Assembly (NCBI GenBank): GCA_964581505.1
Contig: CAZOOR010000002.1
Location: 19,700 to 83,699 of the forward strand
Direction of reading: 5' to 3'
DNA: 64,000 nucleotides
DNA from: an uncultured Hyphomicrobiales bacterium
Lineage (GTDB): Bacteria; Bacteroidota; Ignavibacteria; Kapaibacteriales; UBA2268
Shown: one piece after another, positions 18,785 to 56,596 of the stretch
How the letters are laid out: every line of letters begins with the position of its first letter
Numbering within the stretch: position 1 is the first letter of the stretch
Notes under the pieces: generated by a model
The model's input: the letters and a program-made list of their open reading frames with translations, nothing else
Told to the model about the DNA's origin: nothing
The model's database searches: none
Program-made: the position numbers and the translations under genes

Positions 18785-20356
18785 TTATCTGACTGTCATC
18801 TCAATGACTGGAACTATCATCTCTTCGAGTGATATACCGCCATGCTGAAAAGAATCCTTATATTTTTGTAAATAATGGTGATAGTCAGTGGGATATACAA
18901 AATAGTAATCCTCTTTGGCAATAATATTATTTATAGTCAGTCCCAATTTCGGAATTCTCAAATCTCCCGGCTCCTTAACTTGCATAGCGTGTTTTGAATC
19001 TGCTTTGACATTCTTACCGAATTTATATCTCAAATTGGTCGATGTATCACGGTCGCCGAGTACTTTTACGCCTCTCATACATCTGATAGAACCATGGTCG
19101 GTTGTTAATATTACTTTTGCATTTTTGTTTGTTGCAATAGTTTTTAATATGCCGAATAGTGCGGAATGCTCGAACCATGTTTTAGTAAGTGAACGATAAG
19201 CCGGTTCATCAGGAGCAATTTCTTTTAAAATTGCAAAATCCGAACGTGAATGCGCAATCATATCAACAGCATTGATTACAATAGCAGTCAGATGATTGTT
19301 CAAATATCTCGGAGCTTCGTTCTCAATCTTTCGCCCGAAATCCGTATCATGAATTTTAATATATTTCAATTCGTTTTTCAGATTAATACGCTTGCGTTTT
19401 AATTGCTCTTCGAGCAATTCTTTTTCATAAGCATTCAGTTTATATTCTTCTGTATTTAGTTCGTCAACCCAATAGTTAGGATAATACTTCTGAATATCAT
19501 CGGGAAAAAGCCCTGCAAATATTGCATTCCTTGCATAAGGTGTAGCTGTCGGCAAAATTGCACTGTAGAAATCTTTCTTAAAAGTAAAATATGACTGCAA
19601 TAATTCCTCGAATACAAGCCATTGGTCATAACGCATACAGTCCACAACAATGAAGAAGACCGGAAAACCGGAATCCAAATGTGGTATTAGATATTTGCCG
19701 ACAACATCGGGAGAAAATAGGGGGGTAAACTCATCTTTCTTTTCGTGTACCCACTCCACGTAATTATCTTCAATAAATCTGCTGAAAACATTATTACTCT
19801 CGTGCCATAAGTCTTGAAGTGTTTGGGCAAGTCCTGAATCAGGATATTTGTCTAATTCAATGGAACCTGTAACTAATTTTTGGTAAATTTCCAGCCAATC
19901 CTCCCAAAGCAGTCCCATATTTAGTCGGCTTTCAATCCAAGTAAAATCTTGCAGAAAACTCTGCATAGCCCTATTTTTTTGCAATTCTTTTGTTTGAAGA
20001 AATTTTTTGCAGACGAGCAAAATTTGAGCTGGATTGACAGGCTTTGTCAGATAGTCGTCAATCTTTTTACCGATTGCATCTTCCATTACTGTTTCGGCTT
20101 CATTCTTTGTTACCATTACAACCGGAGTAGCTGGATTGATTTCCTTTAATACCGGCAAAGTATCCAGACCGGAAATTCCGACCATTGATTCGTCAAGAAA
20201 AACGAGGTCATAGAGATTATCCTTAAATAATTCGATAGCATCTTCACCGTTCGAGGCGGTTGCTACATCATAGTTTCGCTGTTCAAGTAATATTATGTGC
20301 GGACGCAGTAGCTCTATCTCGTCATCTACCCATAGAATTTTAGCTTTTGTATTCAT
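18785..20356 (-). CDS. porX: PorX-like response regulator with PglZ (alkaline phosphatase superfamily) domain
   Basis: REC domain (WVDDEI, VFLDESM, VTKNE, YLTKPVNP) fused to VVDCMRYDQW, ILPTATPYARNAIFAG, TTDHG, FQHGGISLEEMIVP. Confidence 0.88.
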   Translation of the reverse strand: MNTKAKILWVDDEIELLRPHIILLEQRNYDVATASNGEDAIELFKDNLYDLVFLDESMVGISGLDTLPVLKEINPATPVVMVTKNEAETVMEDAIGKKIDDYLTKPVNPAQILLVCKKFLQTKELQKNRAMQSFLQDFTWIESRLNMGLLWEDWLEIYQKLVTGSIELDKYPDSGLAQTLQDLWHESNNVFSRFIEDNYVEWVHEKKDEFTPLFSPDVVGKYLIPHLDSGFPVFFIVVDCMRYDQWLVFEELLQSYFTFKKDFYSAILPTATPYARNAIFAGLFPDDIQKYYPNYWVDELNTEEYKLNAYEKELLEEQLKRKRINLKNELKYIKIHDTDFGRKIENEAPRYLNNHLTAIVINAVDMIAHSRSDFAILKEIAPDEPAYRSLTKTWFEHSALFGILKTIATNKNAKVILTTDHGSIRCMRGVKVLGDRDTSTNLRYKFGKNVKADSKHAMQVKEPGDLRIPKLGLTINNIIAKEDYYFVYPTDYHHYLQKYKDSFQHGGISLEEMIVPVIEMTVR

Positions 20357-45860: not shown

Positions 45861-46517
45861 TCAATAAACTTTCTCAACCAATGTGAAATAGTCATGTGCC
45901 GAATCAATATGTATTTGCAAAACACCGGCTTTGACAAGCCTCACCATTAGACGTTCTGCGCGGCGATTTGAAATATTGACCAATCTTGCAAAATCTTTAA
46001 CTGTTGCCCTTTCTTGCTTATCAAGGTATCTGAATAATGTTTTTTCCTTTTCGCCAATAATAATACGGAGCGGCTTTGAATCTGCGTTTGTAGCGGCAAG
46101 TACACGCTTCATTTCCTTTGAAGCGAGAAGGCACTTCTCCCCTACTCTAATGTAAACAAGAGGCTTTTCTTTGGGTTGTTCAGGATTAACAAGTAAGTGC
46201 GGTTTATGTTCGCTCTCGGGAACATAACATACAACAACATCTTCGCCATATAATTCCATTATTTCAATTTCAGGATTTATTGGCGGTTCAATATAGAACT
46301 CACAAGCAGTCTCAATTTCCTGAATAATAGTTTTTTCACTTCTCACACCAATAATATATGAACTGTCATCTACCCCAATAAGCAAGAAGCCACCGATAGT
46401 ATTGGCAAACGCCGCAATCTCTTTTGCAATCTTTTTGTGAGAGCTGATTTTGCGTTTAAATTCGAGAGTAGTGGACTCACCTTTTGCAATCATTTCTAAT
46501 AATTCTTTTGCTCGCAT
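45861..46517 (-). CDS. AlbA_2/Schlafen-domain protein with C-terminal winged HTH
   Basis: GESTTLEFKRK, IAAFANTIGGFLLIGVDD, PESEHKPH, VYIRVGE; C-terminal TVKDFARLVNISNRRAERLMVRLVKAGVL HTH. Confidence 0.85.
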   Translation of the reverse strand: MRAKELLEMIAKGESTTLEFKRKISSHKKIAKEIAAFANTIGGFLLIGVDDSSYIIGVRSEKTIIQEIETACEFYIEPPINPEIEIMELYGEDVVVCYVPESEHKPHLLVNPEQPKEKPLVYIRVGEKCLLASKEMKRVLAATNADSKPLRIIIGEKEKTLFRYLDKQERATVKDFARLVNISNRRAERLMVRLVKAGVLQIHIDSAHDYFTLVEKVY

Positions 46518-50317: not shown

Positions 50318-51580
50318 CTATTTCACATTAATAATTGATACCGATTTCATTCCTTTATCATATAATGATGCCTTTTGAGCAATAGCATCTTTATTATTTA
50401 GGAATTTAATACCGACAATATAGCCACCCGATTTAACTTTAAAAATATTAAAACCATAATCGGATTTTTCTTTAATATACTCTTTCGCCGGTAATAATGA
50501 TTGAAATTCCTTTACTTTTACAATATATTTTAAATCTCCAGTATTACTCGAATATGCATTTGGTGCTGAAAAGTTTAATGGCTCCCATAAATTAGGTCTT
50601 TTACCTTTTGCACCTAGTTTAATGCAATAATTTCCCTGAAGTCTATTTTTTTCATAATATTCAATGATGTAATAACCGGGATGAAAAGTATGTTTTTTAT
50701 GAATTGTTCTATCTTGACGATTACGAGGTATAAATTGTTGAATATTTGCTGTTAATTTCATATACTCAAAATCACTTAAATAATCGGCATTATCAGGTAA
50801 AGGCTCTTCCTTAATAAATTCAAAGATATTCTCTCTAAAATTAATTCGCTTAAAATCAGCAATAATTTCAGGTTCCAAAATAGTGTGCTTCATAATATCA
50901 CCGGCACAGTTATATTTATTCTTCTCGTAATAAACCAATATTTTGTTTCCCCATTTTGGTAAAGGAGACAATTTTTTAATTACAACTCTTGAAATATTAT
51001 CCCCAAGAATTACAATTCCATTTTTAATAAATTCTTTTGTTGATAATTGAATAAATTCACTTGCATCAATAGAATTATAATGGATATCTTCGGCTACCCT
51101 AACCACATACTCATACCATGTATTTGTTTTTTTAACTTCTTTTCCAAAACGATTATCTTCGGGTTTAATCTCACGTTCTTTGTGCCTTTCGTAACCAAGT
51201 TCATATAATGAGGGCTTTCCAAGATTTGAAACACTGCTTTTTTGAATTTTACATTTTTGCCTTTTAGTTGTCAACTCTCCCGATTGAATTTTATCATTTT
51301 TTGATTCTAAACGCAAATATTTATAATTCTTTTGAATGTATTCAAAGGAATGTTTGTCAATAAATTTTTTCCGATATGGACCATCAATAAATACGTAAAG
51401 TCCATTTTCTTTCAATTCATACTGAGGTCTAAATCCATCACTTGATTGTATATCAATAACTTCGGTTTCCTTTTCATTGTCATTCGTAATAACCGCAGTT
51501 AAAGTCTTATCGTCCTTCTTGTTACAACTAAATAAAAATACAAGTAAAAGAAGAACAGAAACGTTCAAACATCTTTTCAT
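50318..51580 (-). CDS. Hypothetical lipoprotein, possible C-terminal SPOR-like domain
   Basis: Lipobox LFSC; Lys/Ile/Asn-rich; C-terminal YIVKVKEF..LLPAKEY...GGYIVGIKFLNNKDAIAQKASLYDKGMKSVSI resembles the SPOR beta-alpha-beta repeat. Confidence 0.6.
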   Translation of the reverse strand: MKRCLNVSVLLLLVFLFSCNKKDDKTLTAVITNDNEKETEVIDIQSSDGFRPQYELKENGLYVFIDGPYRKKFIDKHSFEYIQKNYKYLRLESKNDKIQSGELTTKRQKCKIQKSSVSNLGKPSLYELGYERHKEREIKPEDNRFGKEVKKTNTWYEYVVRVAEDIHYNSIDASEFIQLSTKEFIKNGIVILGDNISRVVIKKLSPLPKWGNKILVYYEKNKYNCAGDIMKHTILEPEIIADFKRINFRENIFEFIKEEPLPDNADYLSDFEYMKLTANIQQFIPRNRQDRTIHKKHTFHPGYYIIEYYEKNRLQGNYCIKLGAKGKRPNLWEPLNFSAPNAYSSNTGDLKYIVKVKEFQSLLPAKEYIKEKSDYGFNIFKVKSGGYIVGIKFLNNKDAIAQKASLYDKGMKSVSIINVK

Positions 51581-51882: not shown

Positions 51883-51957
51883 GGGTTCTTAGCTCAGTTG
51901 GTCTAGAGCGCTTCCTTCACACGGAAGAGGTCACAGGTTCAAATCCTGCAGAACCCA
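51883..51957 (+). tRNA. tRNA-Val (anticodon CAC)
   Basis: GGGTTCT/AGAACCC acceptor, anticodon arm CTTCC-TTCACAC-GGAAG, T arm ACAGG-TTCAAAT-CCTGC (A49-C65 mismatch), discriminator A; 67/75 identical to the GAC copy. Confidence 0.88.
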
Positions 51958-52093
51958 CAAGTGTTTTTTTAACAGTTTTGGACTATTGTTTAATTTAATT
52001 AACAGTTTAGCCAAAGCAATAATAATTGATTTTTTTTGTTTATTACTATTCAGAGATATAATCATATAAAGAATTTTACGGGAGAGCAGTGAT

Positions 52094-52594
52094 ATGTGCG
52101 AGATTCTTGAAAAGCATAGAAAAAGCATTAAAGAGAACAAAAAGATACTAAACAGGCGAATATACAGTATGAAGCAGACTAGTGAAGAGGACATTGATAA
52201 AAAGCTTGATAAAATAATTGAAAACACCAATCTGCTAAATAGTATTTCAAATGAGATAAATAATCTGGCAAATGACTATTATGTTAGAATTAATCATCTG
52301 ATTAAAAATTATTCGCAAAGTGATTTGAAAAAATTCAAGAATTTTATTGACGAATATGAAAAGCTGATTATTAAATTATCATCAACAGAAAATATTAGAG
52401 CTTACCGTACTTCCCGTTCCAATCTGATTATTGCAATTGATAAATTATATGCTATTTATAAAATACTTGATACGAATGTCCTATCACGTATTGAATATGT
52501 TAACGACTACGAAGAGAATGAAATTAATGAAATACTTGGCTCAATGAAATCCGAAGATTTAGAAGTTACCCGTACTTTTACACAAAAGTTCTGA
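52094..52594 (+). CDS. Hypothetical helical protein, putative antitoxin partner of the downstream RelE-like toxin
   Basis: GGAG SD; basic N-terminus, acidic C-terminus (IEYVNDYEENEINEILGSMKSEDLE); stop lies 3 nt before toxin start. Confidence 0.5.
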   Translation: MCEILEKHRKSIKENKKILNRRIYSMKQTSEEDIDKKLDKIIENTNLLNSISNEINNLANDYYVRINHLIKNYSQSDLKKFKNFIDEYEKLIIKLSSTENIRAYRTSRSNLIIAIDKLYAIYKILDTNVLSRIEYVNDYEENEINEILGSMKSEDLEVTRTFTQKF

Positions 52595-52597
52595 GCA

Positions 52598-52897
52598 ATG
52601 ACCTCGCAAGAAAGAGATATTGTAATTCAATATTCCAGACAGGCGGATAAATTTGTTTCAAATTCAAATAGAAAATTATCATTTAATATTGTAAATGGCT
52701 TATGTCATAAAGCCGTAAAAAGGATATTTGGTAATAATATCAATATCGACCTAAAGAAATTAAAAAGCAAAAAAAATCAATACAGAATAAGATATAGGCA
52801 TTTCAGAATAATTTTCCAATATGATTTGAAGAAACAAACAATCATTGTATTTATCATTTCCGTTTACAATAGAGACAAATCGTACAAGAAAAGATAA
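52598..52897 (+). CDS. RelE/ParE superfamily type II toxin-like protein
   Basis: 99 aa, strongly basic; IQYSRQADKF, IDLKKLK, QYRIRYRHFRIIF, IISVYNRDKSY follow the RelE pattern (Y...A.K.l...dikkLk....yRlRvG.yRiif....i..i..R...Y). Confidence 0.75.
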   Translation: MTSQERDIVIQYSRQADKFVSNSNRKLSFNIVNGLCHKAVKRIFGNNINIDLKKLKSKKNQYRIRYRHFRIIFQYDLKKQTIIVFIISVYNRDKSYKKR

Positions 52898-53152: not shown

Positions 53153-54373
53153 ATGCAACGACAATCTTCAAATTTATCAATTATTGTTTTATTTGTAGGG
53201 ATTATTTCATTATTCCTGATTTCCTGTACAGATTCGAGTAATTCTCCCGGTAAAGATGGAAAAGAAATATCTTTTTTAATGTGCCATTATAAAGGTGGAC
53301 AGTTCGGAAACAAGTACGGGTTGGTTTTAGTACATTCGCCCAAAAGCATTGAATGGGTTTCAGATTATTATCCTTGCCAATTGTCGACAAATTTCGTTGA
53401 TATAAAGAACGGTAGAATAGCTTTCTCTTGCGAGAATCCGCCAAAGGGAAAATCTCCAATTGCATATATGGATATAGATGATATAAAAAACATCAAGTTT
53501 GTCCCAATTCCAAAATCTAAAGATGAAAAATATTATTGGAGTGTTCCAAAAGCAGTAAGACCACAGGTTATGTCTGATGGAAGAATAATCTTTAAAGTAA
53601 TTTATGAAACAAAAAATCAATATGACGATTACCATCTGGGACAGATGGCTATATATAATCCGAAGACAGATAAATTTGAAATGTCCGGCTCATTAACTCC
53701 TTTTATTAAGGAGCAACCCGAAAAGGGTTCGGATACTGAAGCCGGTTCGATGAATTCGACTTTTTCCTTATCAAATGACGATAAATTTGTTTGTTTAACT
53801 GCTTATGGATATGGGACGAGCGGTGGTGCTTATCACCAAGATAAATTCTTTATTGTCAAATATGACATAGCCTCTAAAAAATACACACGTATTACACAAG
53901 TGAAAGCTGATATACTGTTTGTTTCCGCAGATAATCAGTATGTTGTTGTTAATTCGGATACGAAAAAGAAAAGATACAATGCACATAGCGACAATACTAG
54001 CGGTTTTGTACTTGATAATTATCGAGATAATATTTGTGTCGGACAGTATTCAAGAAAAAATTCATACTTTTTTAAGATATGGCGCGGCAGCGGTATGCAT
54101 TTTTTTGATGCTAATTCGGGACCACTTTATTTACTGATTTTGGGCGATAGTTTGAAGCGTCCCTATCGTGGATTAGGACGGGGAGCGCAATTCTCACCCG
54201 ACGAGAAATTTATTTATTTTATGGCATCAAAAGATTTTCATACTAATTACCGTTCAGAATTTGCAATTCTCAGAACACCTGCAGACTTTGGAAAAGTAAA
54301 TACCAATCCCGATTCTATTTTCGTTCTACCCGCAGATTTTGACAGACCGATGTTTTTATTGATTAGCAAATGA
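53153..54373 (+). CDS. Hypothetical lipoprotein, probable beta-propeller
   Basis: Lipobox LISC; beta-strand-rich repeats (FSLSNDDKFV, FVSADNQYV, AQFSPDEKFIYF) typical of WD40/PD40-like blades; TATTTTTG box at 53091-53098. Confidence 0.65.
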   Translation: MQRQSSNLSIIVLFVGIISLFLISCTDSSNSPGKDGKEISFLMCHYKGGQFGNKYGLVLVHSPKSIEWVSDYYPCQLSTNFVDIKNGRIAFSCENPPKGKSPIAYMDIDDIKNIKFVPIPKSKDEKYYWSVPKAVRPQVMSDGRIIFKVIYETKNQYDDYHLGQMAIYNPKTDKFEMSGSLTPFIKEQPEKGSDTEAGSMNSTFSLSNDDKFVCLTAYGYGTSGGAYHQDKFFIVKYDIASKKYTRITQVKADILFVSADNQYVVVNSDTKKKRYNAHSDNTSGFVLDNYRDNICVGQYSRKNSYFFKIWRGSGMHFFDANSGPLYLLILGDSLKRPYRGLGRGAQFSPDEKFIYFMASKDFHTNYRSEFAILRTPADFGKVNTNPDSIFVLPADFDRPMFLLISK

Positions 54374-54505: not shown

Positions 54506-56596
54506 ATGAATTTTCTAAATCCCGCAATACTATTCGCTATGTTTGCCGCCGCAATTCCGTTGCTACTTCACTTGTTGAATTTACGGAAATTGAAGCGTGT
54601 GGAATTTTCTTCTTTGAAGTTTATAAAAGAACTACAAAAAACAAGAATACGCAAAGTTAAATTGAAACAAATTATTCTCTTAATTCTGCGAACATTAATT
54701 ATCGCTTTTATTGTTCTTGCTTTTGCACGTCCAACAATAAAGAGTGAATTACCCCTACTCGGCACTTATGCAAAATCCAGCGTTGTAATTTTGTTGGATA
54801 ATTCATTCAGTATTGATGTATCCGATGAATTCGGCAATCGCCTGAAGCAAGCGAAGTCGGCTGCCGCCTCTATATTGAACAGCCTAAAACCCGGCGATGA
54901 CGCCGTAATAATCCCAATGTCCGGTACAGAAAATCAGGCATTATCACTATCAAGAAATTTTGCTCAATTAAATGACGAATTGACAAGAATCACAATATCA
55001 AATAAGCCTGCGGCATTTGTTGATGCAGTTAGTAAAGCGTATTCATTGCTCGAAGAAAGTAAAAATCTGAATAGGGAAATCTATCTGATTAGCGATTGCC
55101 AGCAAAATGTATTTTCGTATAGCGGCACGGATTCGCTGAACTATTTTAATCCAAATACATCATTATATATAGTGAATATAGGGAGTAATTCAAAAAGTAG
55201 TATTGTCAATCTCTCGGTAGATTCTTTGCAATCACTTACACAGCTCTTTCTGCAAGACGAGCCGGTAGAATTCCGAACAAGTATTAAGAACAATTCCAAT
55301 AAAAATATTTCCGGCTTGGTAGTTTCGCTTTTCTACAACAAAAACAGAACTGCACAAATGGCGATTGATATTGATGCAGGACAAACTAAAACAATCAATA
55401 TGTTTGGCGAACCAAAGGACTTCGGAGTAGTAAAAGCTTTTGTGGAAATTGAAAATGATGCACTAGACCATGACAACAGGCGATACTTCGGTTTCTATAT
55501 TCCCGAGAAGCCGCAAGTAGCAGTATTTGGCAATAAAAATATTTTTCCTGTTGAGACGGTTCTCAAACTCAACGATTCGAGAATTGCGTATGCCGTATTC
55601 CAATTATCCCAGCTTGGTTCTATTAATTTGAGTAAGTATGATATATTAATCATAACTGACGGACTGACAGACGCAAATCAATTCAAAGTACTAAAAGACT
55701 ATATAGAAACCGGTGGCTCTACCCTATTATTTGCCGGCGAAGGAAATAAAAGCTACATTGCATATACCGAAGGATTGAACCTACTTGGTATTTCCGCAAT
55801 TGACATTAAACAATTTTCCGACTCATCACCTTTGGAATTTAATTATACGGACAAACAACACCCATTATTCAAAGGTGTTTTCAAAGGAAATACAAATAGC
55901 AACAAACAGGTGGAGACAGCGGAAATCAGCAAACTAATAGTTAGCAAATCAGGACAAAGCATTATCTCTACATCTGCCGGAAATATCCTGAGTGAAATAC
56001 GACTTGGTAAGGGAAAACTATTTTTTGTTTCAACGGGATTAGGTGCAAGCTGGAGCAATTTTCCACTGACAGGTATATTCCCCGTACTGATTTATCGCTC
56101 TGTATTTTATCTCACATCAAAGGAATATACCGGTATTTCCGCCAAAGTTGGGGACAAAGTAAGGATTGTCATACCAAAGAAATTTGCTAATATTCCTCGT
56201 TTTAAAATCACAGACCCAAGCGGACTTGAGTCATTCAGAGAAGCCGCCGTTCTACCATCTGCGGCAATCCTTGAATTAGATAATTTGACTCAACAAGGGG
56301 TATATATAATTAGCACACCGTCCAATAAAGTAGTCCAATTATTAAGCGTTAATAATGCGGCAACAGAGTCAATCATTCGGAAACGAGACGAAAAGGTAAT
56401 AAAAAACGATATTGCTAAATATATTGACAACAGAACAGAAATAAAATATATCTCGGCAGAAACAATTGCCAATAATTTTTCACGTGCAAGGACAGGTACC
56501 GAACTTTGGCAATTATTTATTATCTTGGCAATTATTACGGCACTTAGCGAAATGCTTGTGGCACGGAATACAAAAAACGAACTGAGTGGCGAATAA
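54506..56596 (+). CDS. BatA domain / VWA membrane protein
   Basis: MNFLNPAILF...IPLLLHLLN...VEFSSLKFI...LILRTLII..FIVLAFARP (BatA), VILLDNSFS (VWA MIDAS-like), DNRRYF, C-terminal ELWQLFIILA TM. Confidence 0.85.
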   Translation: MNFLNPAILFAMFAAAIPLLLHLLNLRKLKRVEFSSLKFIKELQKTRIRKVKLKQIILLILRTLIIAFIVLAFARPTIKSELPLLGTYAKSSVVILLDNSFSIDVSDEFGNRLKQAKSAAASILNSLKPGDDAVIIPMSGTENQALSLSRNFAQLNDELTRITISNKPAAFVDAVSKAYSLLEESKNLNREIYLISDCQQNVFSYSGTDSLNYFNPNTSLYIVNIGSNSKSSIVNLSVDSLQSLTQLFLQDEPVEFRTSIKNNSNKNISGLVVSLFYNKNRTAQMAIDIDAGQTKTINMFGEPKDFGVVKAFVEIENDALDHDNRRYFGFYIPEKPQVAVFGNKNIFPVETVLKLNDSRIAYAVFQLSQLGSINLSKYDILIITDGLTDANQFKVLKDYIETGGSTLLFAGEGNKSYIAYTEGLNLLGISAIDIKQFSDSSPLEFNYTDKQHPLFKGVFKGNTNSNKQVETAEISKLIVSKSGQSIISTSAGNILSEIRLGKGKLFFVSTGLGASWSNFPLTGIFPVLIYRSVFYLTSKEYTGISAKVGDKVRIVIPKKFANIPRFKITDPSGLESFREAAVLPSAAILELDNLTQQGVYIISTPSNKVVQLLSVNNAATESIIRKRDEKVIKNDIAKYIDNRTEIKYISAETIANNFSRARTGTELWQLFIILAIITALSEMLVARNTKNELSGE

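Follow-up and report, generated by a model that had tools for sequence, protein, structure and literature searches.

The binding mode of the antitoxin RelB is reportedly known from the structural work of Takagi (2005) and Boggild (2012). In two other systems with RelE-fold toxins, the antitoxins MqsA, which carries a zinc domain and a helix-turn-helix (HTH), and HigA, which carries an Xre HTH, neutralise via folded domains, and the DNA-binding folds of both are recognisable. Antitoxins have also been described as modular proteins, in which exchangeable neutralising elements are linearly attached (PMC10135005; PMC10440598). Here, a two-gene unit located 3' of tRNA-Val(CAC) was analysed in a stretch of 64,000 nucleotides (hereafter the window), which represents positions 19,700 to 83,699 of contig CAZOOR010000002.1 from an uncultured bacterium placed in the Kapaibacteriales. 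This pair is probably a type II toxin-antitoxin (TA) operon of the RelBE kind with a modular antitoxin, in which a tail known from a family of short antitoxins stands behind a lineage-specific extension. The features that make up the pair are, in window coordinates:

52094..52594, + strand: antitoxin gene, 166 aa from the first methionine (M1), with an alternative start at M26 (52169) that gives 141 aa

52094..52381, + strand: orphan N-terminal extension of the antitoxin, residues 1-96, with predicted helices at residues 2-26, 31-72 and 75-96

52379..52444, + strand: region that may correspond, in degenerate form, to the N-terminal hairpin of the family, antitoxin residues 96-117 ('STEN...NLIIAIDK' versus 'IAEN..hhIxhDK' in the family)

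52466..52576, + strand: conserved antitoxin tail, residues 125-161, IEYVNDYEENEINEILGSMKSEDLEVT, with a predicted toxin-neutralising helix and terminal strand

52598..52897, + strand: RelE-fold toxin gene, 99 aa, pI 10.6, identified by profile, PHROG and structure evidence

The antitoxin stop codon (TGA) and the toxin ATG are separated by GCA, a gap of 3 nt, and both open reading frames (ORFs) are found on the + strand in one shared reading frame. A preliminary description of this locus, made from the sequence alone, had reported the same two-gene unit of 166 and 99 aa with a 3-nt gap, 3' of tRNA-Val(CAC); the ORFs and the tRNA were confirmed here, the tRNA being located 135 nt upstream. The basic N-terminus and acidic C-terminus of the first protein and the basic character of the second were confirmed as well, with net charges of +6 for antitoxin residues 1-27, -6 for antitoxin residues 133-166 and +18 for the toxin.

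According to profile searches and a structure model, the 99-aa protein is a divergent toxin with a RelE fold, as the preliminary description had proposed. Against a profile of 11 family toxins of about 92 aa, found in Ignavibacteriota and Kapaibacteria metagenome-assembled genomes (MAGs) and used with the window sequence left out, residues 7-96 scored 60.6 bits (E 7.8e-21 in a single comparison), and residues 10-97 matched PHROG 1213, 'RelE-like toxin', with 1.2e-6. Searching 60 related genomes in six frames identified homologues of about 90 aa, with E-values from 6.7e-9 to 4.6e-4. Three of the more distant homologues passed the threshold of Pfam model PF05016, and all 12 toxins of alignment A4 (the 11 family toxins and the window toxin) showed weak matches to this model, the best being 3.9e-5; judged by curated models, membership of the window toxin in the RelE/ParE superfamily is reached only indirectly, via its homologues. 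PADLOC gave no match for the toxin, and a word-indexed search of 5.8 billion clusters returned only the toxin itself. Two members of the toxin family are called RelE by IMG and hypothetical by NCBI. Among PDB sequences, the toxin family profile matched an archaeal RelE (1wmi, 1.5e-4), RelE3 of M. jannaschii (3bpq, 0.0086) and Rv2866 (0.02), and the toxin as a single sequence matched the ribosome-bound E. coli RelE with an E-value of 0.017.

A structure was predicted with AlphaFold2 (AF2) for a read-through fusion of both proteins, in which the in-frame TGA was read as Trp and eight toxin homologues were used as alignment rows; only toxin rows were used because MAFFT misaligned the toxins when antitoxin rows were included. 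The toxin part of this model showed block-mean predicted local distance difference test (pLDDT) values of 82-96 and one strand followed by two helices and four further strands (in fusion numbering, the first strand is at 175-180 and the helices are at 182-190 and 197-211). Foldseek searches of the PDB with this part returned 3bpq_B (4e-5), 4ml0_B, 1wmi_A and 4fxe_E as top matches, with target-normalised TM scores of 0.58-0.67, and all of the best 25 matches were toxins of the RelE/ParE superfamily (RelE, YafQ, YoeB and relatives). Toxin residues R63, R65, R70, F73, R92 and Y96 are invariant across the family alignments. An alignment of the toxin with E. coli RelE pairs R63, R65 and R92 with K52, K54 and R81, respectively; the pairings of R70 with R61 and of Y96 with Y87 are our own reading, for which the hairpin loop was shifted by hand by 2 residues and Y96 lies beyond the aligned stretch. 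Aligned in this way, the toxin appears to keep counterparts of all five RelE active-site residues (E. coli K52, K54, R61, R81 and Y87).

Comparisons with the partners of related toxins identified the C-terminal 40-70 residues of the antitoxin as homologous to antitoxins of 74-106 aa that accompany toxins of the same clade. The closest toxin homologues have partners of about 77-90 aa with the C-terminal pattern ...IxxV(S/D)xEEQxE(I/L)xxxLxSMxxEDxE(I)..., and the window protein ends with IEYVNDYEENEINEILGSMKSEDLEVT. Antitoxin residues 125-161 matched a profile of 13 family antitoxins, with the window left out, with 23.6 bits (E 1.8e-9, Z=1), and the antitoxin gene was recovered with 25.8 bits (E 2.1e-5 per genome) in a six-frame genome-wide search with profile A5, which was built without the window. 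Moreover, BLASTP aligned antitoxin residues 111-161 with the partner of the closest toxin homologue (G022; E 1e-5) and matched the antitoxin to the partner in genome G053 with an E-value of 3e-4. In the AF2 model of the antitoxin, a helix was predicted at residues 138-149, with block-mean pLDDT values of 71 and 80 for residues 131-150. The acidic antitoxin tail is likely the neutralising element.

The short-antitoxin family that carries this tail includes, besides the cluster of the window protein, 33 clusters among 5.8 billion; all 33 database members are 74-106 aa in length, are named 'hypothetical' and are without a Pfam domain, compared to a length of 141 or 166 aa for the window protein. 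No Pfam, NCBIfam or PDB sequence covers the family, and searches of PDB sequences with short-family profiles A2 (window included) and A5 did not identify an antitoxin. The named loci of the family are found in Ignavibacteriota, Kapaibacteria or Bacteroidota MAGs. Among sampled genomes, the family was found in 23 of 401 genomes of the class and in almost none of 401 genomes across the phylum, and the window antitoxin represents the longest open frame among the family matches in the 401 genomes of the class. Antitoxin-first order and tight gene coupling were found throughout the family pairs, and narrower alignments of the toxin family recovered six genome loci and two metagenome loci. As its members are annotated as hypothetical in every source, the short-antitoxin family can fairly be regarded as undescribed. 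The preliminary description had suggested an undescribed antitoxin family for the 166-aa protein, and this suggestion stands in so far as the family is unannotated and the partner is long and is not RelB, Phd or HigA; the protein is not wholly new, however, as its tail is homologous to antitoxins of 74-106 aa.

In its usual form, the N-terminal part of a family antitoxin consists of a hairpin with the pattern 'hxIAEN..hhIxhDK' followed by a helix. MAFFT aligned residues 96-117 of the window antitoxin with this hairpin in four alignments, given an 8-residue insertion. When the family was used as multiple sequence alignment (MSA), AF2 predicted strands at residues 101-107 and 110-115 with pLDDT below 55; the BLASTP alignment starts at residue 111 and the hidden Markov model alignment only at residue 125. 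The hairpin-helix domain of the family may survive in the window antitoxin, at best in degenerate form. Positions 3-36 of profile A5 marginally matched PDB sequences of the YAM domain at the C-terminus of the MFS transporter YajR (2ru9, 4q2l and 3wdo; E 0.015-0.05); these matches may have arisen by chance and could possibly hint at the fold of the N-terminal domain of the family. An acidic stretch of SDA1 gave another marginal PDB match to the short-family profile.

Beside toxins of this clade, at least three other N-terminal parts carry the tail (i.e., the IAEN hairpin, the type found at locus L062 and the ribbon-helix-helix (RHH)-like type found at locus L043). At L062 (1774-2282), the tail follows a 'TIELKISE..FLExLPK' domain ('TIELKISExIYxKxxxFLExLPK') and the toxin is intact; the same domain and the tail form proteins of 70-75 aa with no adjoining toxin at L036, L039 and L046. 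At L043 (G250 C26, 1217-1779), the tail follows an RHH-like domain. In proteins of the L062 and L043 types, the tail reads IP(Y)V(S/D)DEEQKEIEEIL. The presence of one tail on four N-terminal parts fits the published modularity of antitoxins.

Orphan antitoxins of the short family seem to be common. At L051 (3001-3240), a family antitoxin without a toxin runs directly into hisF, at L054 (3001-3398) the antitoxin is followed by a toxin remnant of 50 aa, and at L050 (3001-3451) it is followed by about 210 nt of empty sequence. In genome G053 (L004, 1489-1780), the toxin is frameshifted after 'YRI'. L051 and L054, which are found on unrelated metagenome contigs, both place the antitoxin a few kb from a BatA/VWA gene and from hisH/hisF. 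A BatA/VWA gene is also present in the window (54506-56596), 1.6 kb 3' of the pair, and this likeness to L051 and L054 may be a coincidence.

Judged by homology searches, the extension of about 95 residues is the sole part of the pair that is unique to this locus. At full length, the 166-aa protein was found to have no homologue besides itself among 1.84 billion representative proteins (exhaustive phmmer), a word-indexed search of 5.8 billion clusters returned the protein alone, and none of 60 relatives carries a homologue; homologues were found only for the tail, among short antitoxins beside the same toxin clade. In line with that description, no match to a ribbon-helix-helix, HTH or Phd/YefM motif was found for the 166-aa protein in Pfam, NCBIfam, PADLOC or PHROGs. 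Pfam matches such as MIS13 and FliJ represent coiled-coil or compositional noise and not homology, a PADLOC match to LeoBC was non-significant (E 0.22), and the best Foldseek matches of the antitoxin model in the PDB (winged-helix repressors, E 1.3) and in BFVD (E 1.1) are meaningless. AF2 with MSA modelled the extension with block-mean pLDDT values of 69-85, and hydrophobic residues occupy 6 of 8, 9 of 12 and 6 of 6 heptad a/d positions in its three predicted helices, the first of which is basic. The first 92 antitoxin codons are free of stop codons, which was found in none of 20000 shuffles, and the other five real frames contain 3-20 stops; as the frame is open where shuffles never are, the reading frame of the extension is maintained.

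If the pair is a RelBE-type operon with a modular antitoxin, the toxin would most likely cleave mRNA in the ribosomal A site via R63, R65, R70, R92 and Y96. By analogy with RelB, the acidic C-terminal region of about 40 residues, with the helix at about 138-149 and the terminal strand, would wrap around the toxin and block its active site; binding and neutralisation by the tail are suggested because the short antitoxins encoded beside the closest toxin relatives end in this motif. The charges of the tail (-6) and the toxin (+18) are complementary, in agreement with this reading. The three-helix extension would act in addition to, or instead of, the small hairpin-helix domain of the short family members. 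More tentatively, it could provide oligomerisation, and its basic first helix could perhaps contact DNA for autorepression at the spacer upstream of the antitoxin gene. It seems improbable that the extension represents a new antitoxin module, i.e., an unseen basic-helix or coiled-coil DNA-binding domain or a trigger-sensing domain grafted onto the tail of an undescribed family; if it does, it would provide a RelE toxin with a mode of control unlike those of RelB, Phd, HigA and MqsA.

A number of observations weigh against a modular RelBE-type operon. The match of the toxin to Pfam PF05016 (model name ParE_toxin) reached 17.1 bits, which is under the cut-off of 23, and NCBIfam, including TIGR02385 (RelE_StbE), provided no match to the toxin above cut-off. 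The window pair is without a close relative, and the window toxin is the most divergent member of its family (28-41% identity). It alone replaces two nearly invariant glycines (RxG is RYR and FRG is NRD in the window toxin), which could indicate relaxed selection. The tail was not placed with confidence in the read-through fusion model (block-mean pLDDT 36-55); this says nothing for or against an interface, as the antitoxin half of that model had no alignment. No DNA-binding fold is recognisable in the extension, for which Foldseek found nothing significant in the PDB or BFVD, and its GC content by codon position is atypical (0.33/0.16/0.34, i.e., a GC2 of 0.16), a profile that fits its K/N/I/E-rich composition and could point to a young or weakly constrained origin. 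Finally, gene callers disagree on the antitoxin start, which is placed at M26 (141 aa) by NCBI and Logan and at M1 (166 aa) by JGI and ENA. The true start codon is therefore uncertain between M1 and M26, and translation from M26 would remove the basic first helix, which only the long form has.

Some of these observations would also be expected of a decaying or domesticated module with an attenuated toxin, in which the start codon moved upstream into AT-rich sequence and the extension arose as a by-product without function. The toxin is an outlier of its family at the two glycines, a K/N/I/E-rich composition with low GC2 is what translated AT-rich DNA would give, annotation pipelines differ on the start codon, and decay is seen at family loci, with the toxin lost or truncated at L050, L051 and L054 and frameshifted in G053. 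Both frames of the window pair are intact, however, and the toxin keeps the five catalytic-type residues; the stop-free stretch of 92 codons was never reproduced by shuffling, and three helices with regular heptad amphipathicity and moderate pLDDT are unexpected for random or untranslated sequence, which together make decay unlikely. A sensor-antitoxin fusion used in abortive-infection defence, as raised in the preliminary description with phage as a possible trigger, would assign the N-terminal helices the role of sensing a trigger (e.g., a phage protein) and of releasing or activating the toxin. The lineage-specific extension is located on the antitoxin, where triggers could act, TA modules often serve phage defence (PMC10440598) and a Schlafen/AlbA_2 gene is present about 6 kb away. 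The extension nevertheless resembles nothing in PADLOC, where its only match is the non-significant one, or in PHROGs, and it has no structural neighbour in the PDB or BFVD; an antitoxin without homologues shows no conserved link to defence islands, and the flanks contain no other defence genes, the Pfam-scanned neighbours being lipoprotein genes without a Pfam family and the BatA gene. The sensor proposal did not find support in these comparisons, and we consider it doubtful.

A further explanation concerns the toxin alone, which could act as ParE, a DNA gyrase poison, and not as RelE. Its sole Pfam match is the model named ParE_toxin, and RelE and ParE activities share one fold (PMC10440598), but PF05016 also covers RelE-type toxins, and family members matching this model are named RelE by IMG. 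In the Foldseek ranking, named ParDE complexes (E 0.09-0.14) come after RelE, YafQ and YoeB (E 4e-5 to 1e-2), the family does not vary at the basic residues and the C-terminal Tyr that correspond to the RelE active site, and the PHROG and NCBIfam matches are RelE models. A ParE-type activity is thus very unlikely.

Upstream of the pair, the spacer between the tRNA and the antitoxin gene is 135 nt long and AT-rich. The following features were identified in this region:

51883..51958, + strand: tRNA-Val(CAC), identified by ARAGORN

51969-51978 and 51999-52008, + strand: direct repeat TTAACAGTTT, two exact copies 30 nt apart in the spacer, a candidate operator

51999-52026, + strand: sigma-70-like -35/-10 match (TTAACA, a 16-nt spacer and AATAAT), which overlaps the second copy of TTAACAGTTT

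52080..52086, + strand: Shine-Dalgarno-like GGGAGAG, read from the sequence, which ends 7 nt 5' of the M1 ATG

The repeat, which had been put forward as a possible operator, is real, and TTAACAGTTT is found exactly twice in the whole 64-kb window. Dinucleotide shuffling of the 135-nt spacer yielded an exact direct repeat of at least 10 nt in 7.4% of cases, and 4.4% of real window tiles of this length contain one as well; the repeat of the spacer is thus not clearly in excess of chance, and the operator proposal is statistically weak. Promoter-like matches were not enriched (13 seen compared to 12.6 expected from shuffles), and a scan of the locus found no terminator-like site. A loose Shine-Dalgarno-like motif is present in 13 of 40 long ORFs of the window, which indicates sparse use of this motif in the genome.

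The pair sits in a variable stretch that is not marked by a mobility gene or an att site. At least 12 related genera share the order pyrH-frr-tRNA-Val, and the DNA 3' of the tRNA varies; none of the genes that lie 3' of the tRNAs in the window was found within the 1.5-kb flank examined at the pyrH-frr-tRNA-Val loci of relatives. As the preliminary description had noted, no integrase is present among the Pfam-scanned neighbours, and the tRNA 3' end is not repeated elsewhere in the window when up to 3 mismatches are allowed. Its view of the site as a tRNA integration hotspot was not borne out, given that neither an integrase nor an att duplicate was found and that the comparisons show only variable DNA 3' of a conserved pyrH-frr-tRNA-Val. 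The unit of tRNA-Val(CAC) and the pair is flanked by two genes (50318-51580 on the - strand and 53153-54373 on the + strand) whose products, of 420 and 406 aa, respectively, start with lipoprotein-like sequences and belong to no Pfam family. Among 40 relatives, a single homologue of the 406-aa protein was identified (49% identity), in another context. The Schlafen/AlbA_2 protein mentioned above (45861-46517 on the - strand, 218 aa, PF04326 with 5e-26) is encoded 5' of the pair and adjoins tRNA-Pro.

The analyses reported here document a small TA family of the RelE type, the antitoxin of which escapes sequence searches against Pfam, NCBIfam and the PDB. The natural occurrence of one neutralising tail with four N-terminal parts provides a clean test set for portable neutralising elements. 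These data are useful for TA annotation in Ignavibacteriota and Kapaibacteria and for studies of TA modularity, and do not change the understanding of how RelE systems work.

Among known systems, the window pair is most like the unnamed pairs of Ignavibacteriota and Kapaibacteria (e.g., MBU2445984.1 with MBU2445983.1 and HET6401431.1 with HET6401432.1), with which it shares the toxin clade, the antitoxin-first order, the tight coupling and the tail motif IxxVxDEEQxEIxxxLxSMxxEDxE of the antitoxin. Unlike these pairs, the window antitoxin adds the orphan extension of about 95 residues, and a hairpin-helix domain is, at best, present in degenerate form. RelBE (E. coli 4fxe and 4v7k; archaeal 1wmi and 3bpq) shares the RelE fold, the active-site equivalents and the upstream position of the antitoxin gene with the window pair, and neutralisation in the latter is presumed to occur, as in RelBE, via an acidic C-terminal helix and strand. 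Compared to RelB, the window antitoxin has no ribbon-helix-helix and no RelB or RelB-like Pfam match, is twice as long and shows no sequence similarity. MqsR-MqsA, which is cited in PMC10440598, and HigB-HigA similarly combine a RelE-fold toxin with an antitoxin that well exceeds 100 residues and has a different regulatory domain, but the window antitoxin shows no HTH or zinc motif in Pfam, NCBIfam or Foldseek comparisons, and its gene comes first. The 'linear neutralisation' antitoxins of combinatorial TA networks (Ernits et al. 2023, PMC10440598) resemble the window antitoxin in that an exchangeable element is found on different scaffolds; the scaffold in the window is an orphan helical region, in contrast to the Panacea, Phd, RHH and HTH scaffolds of those networks. 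Taken together, the pair is an unusual version of an ordinary TA system.

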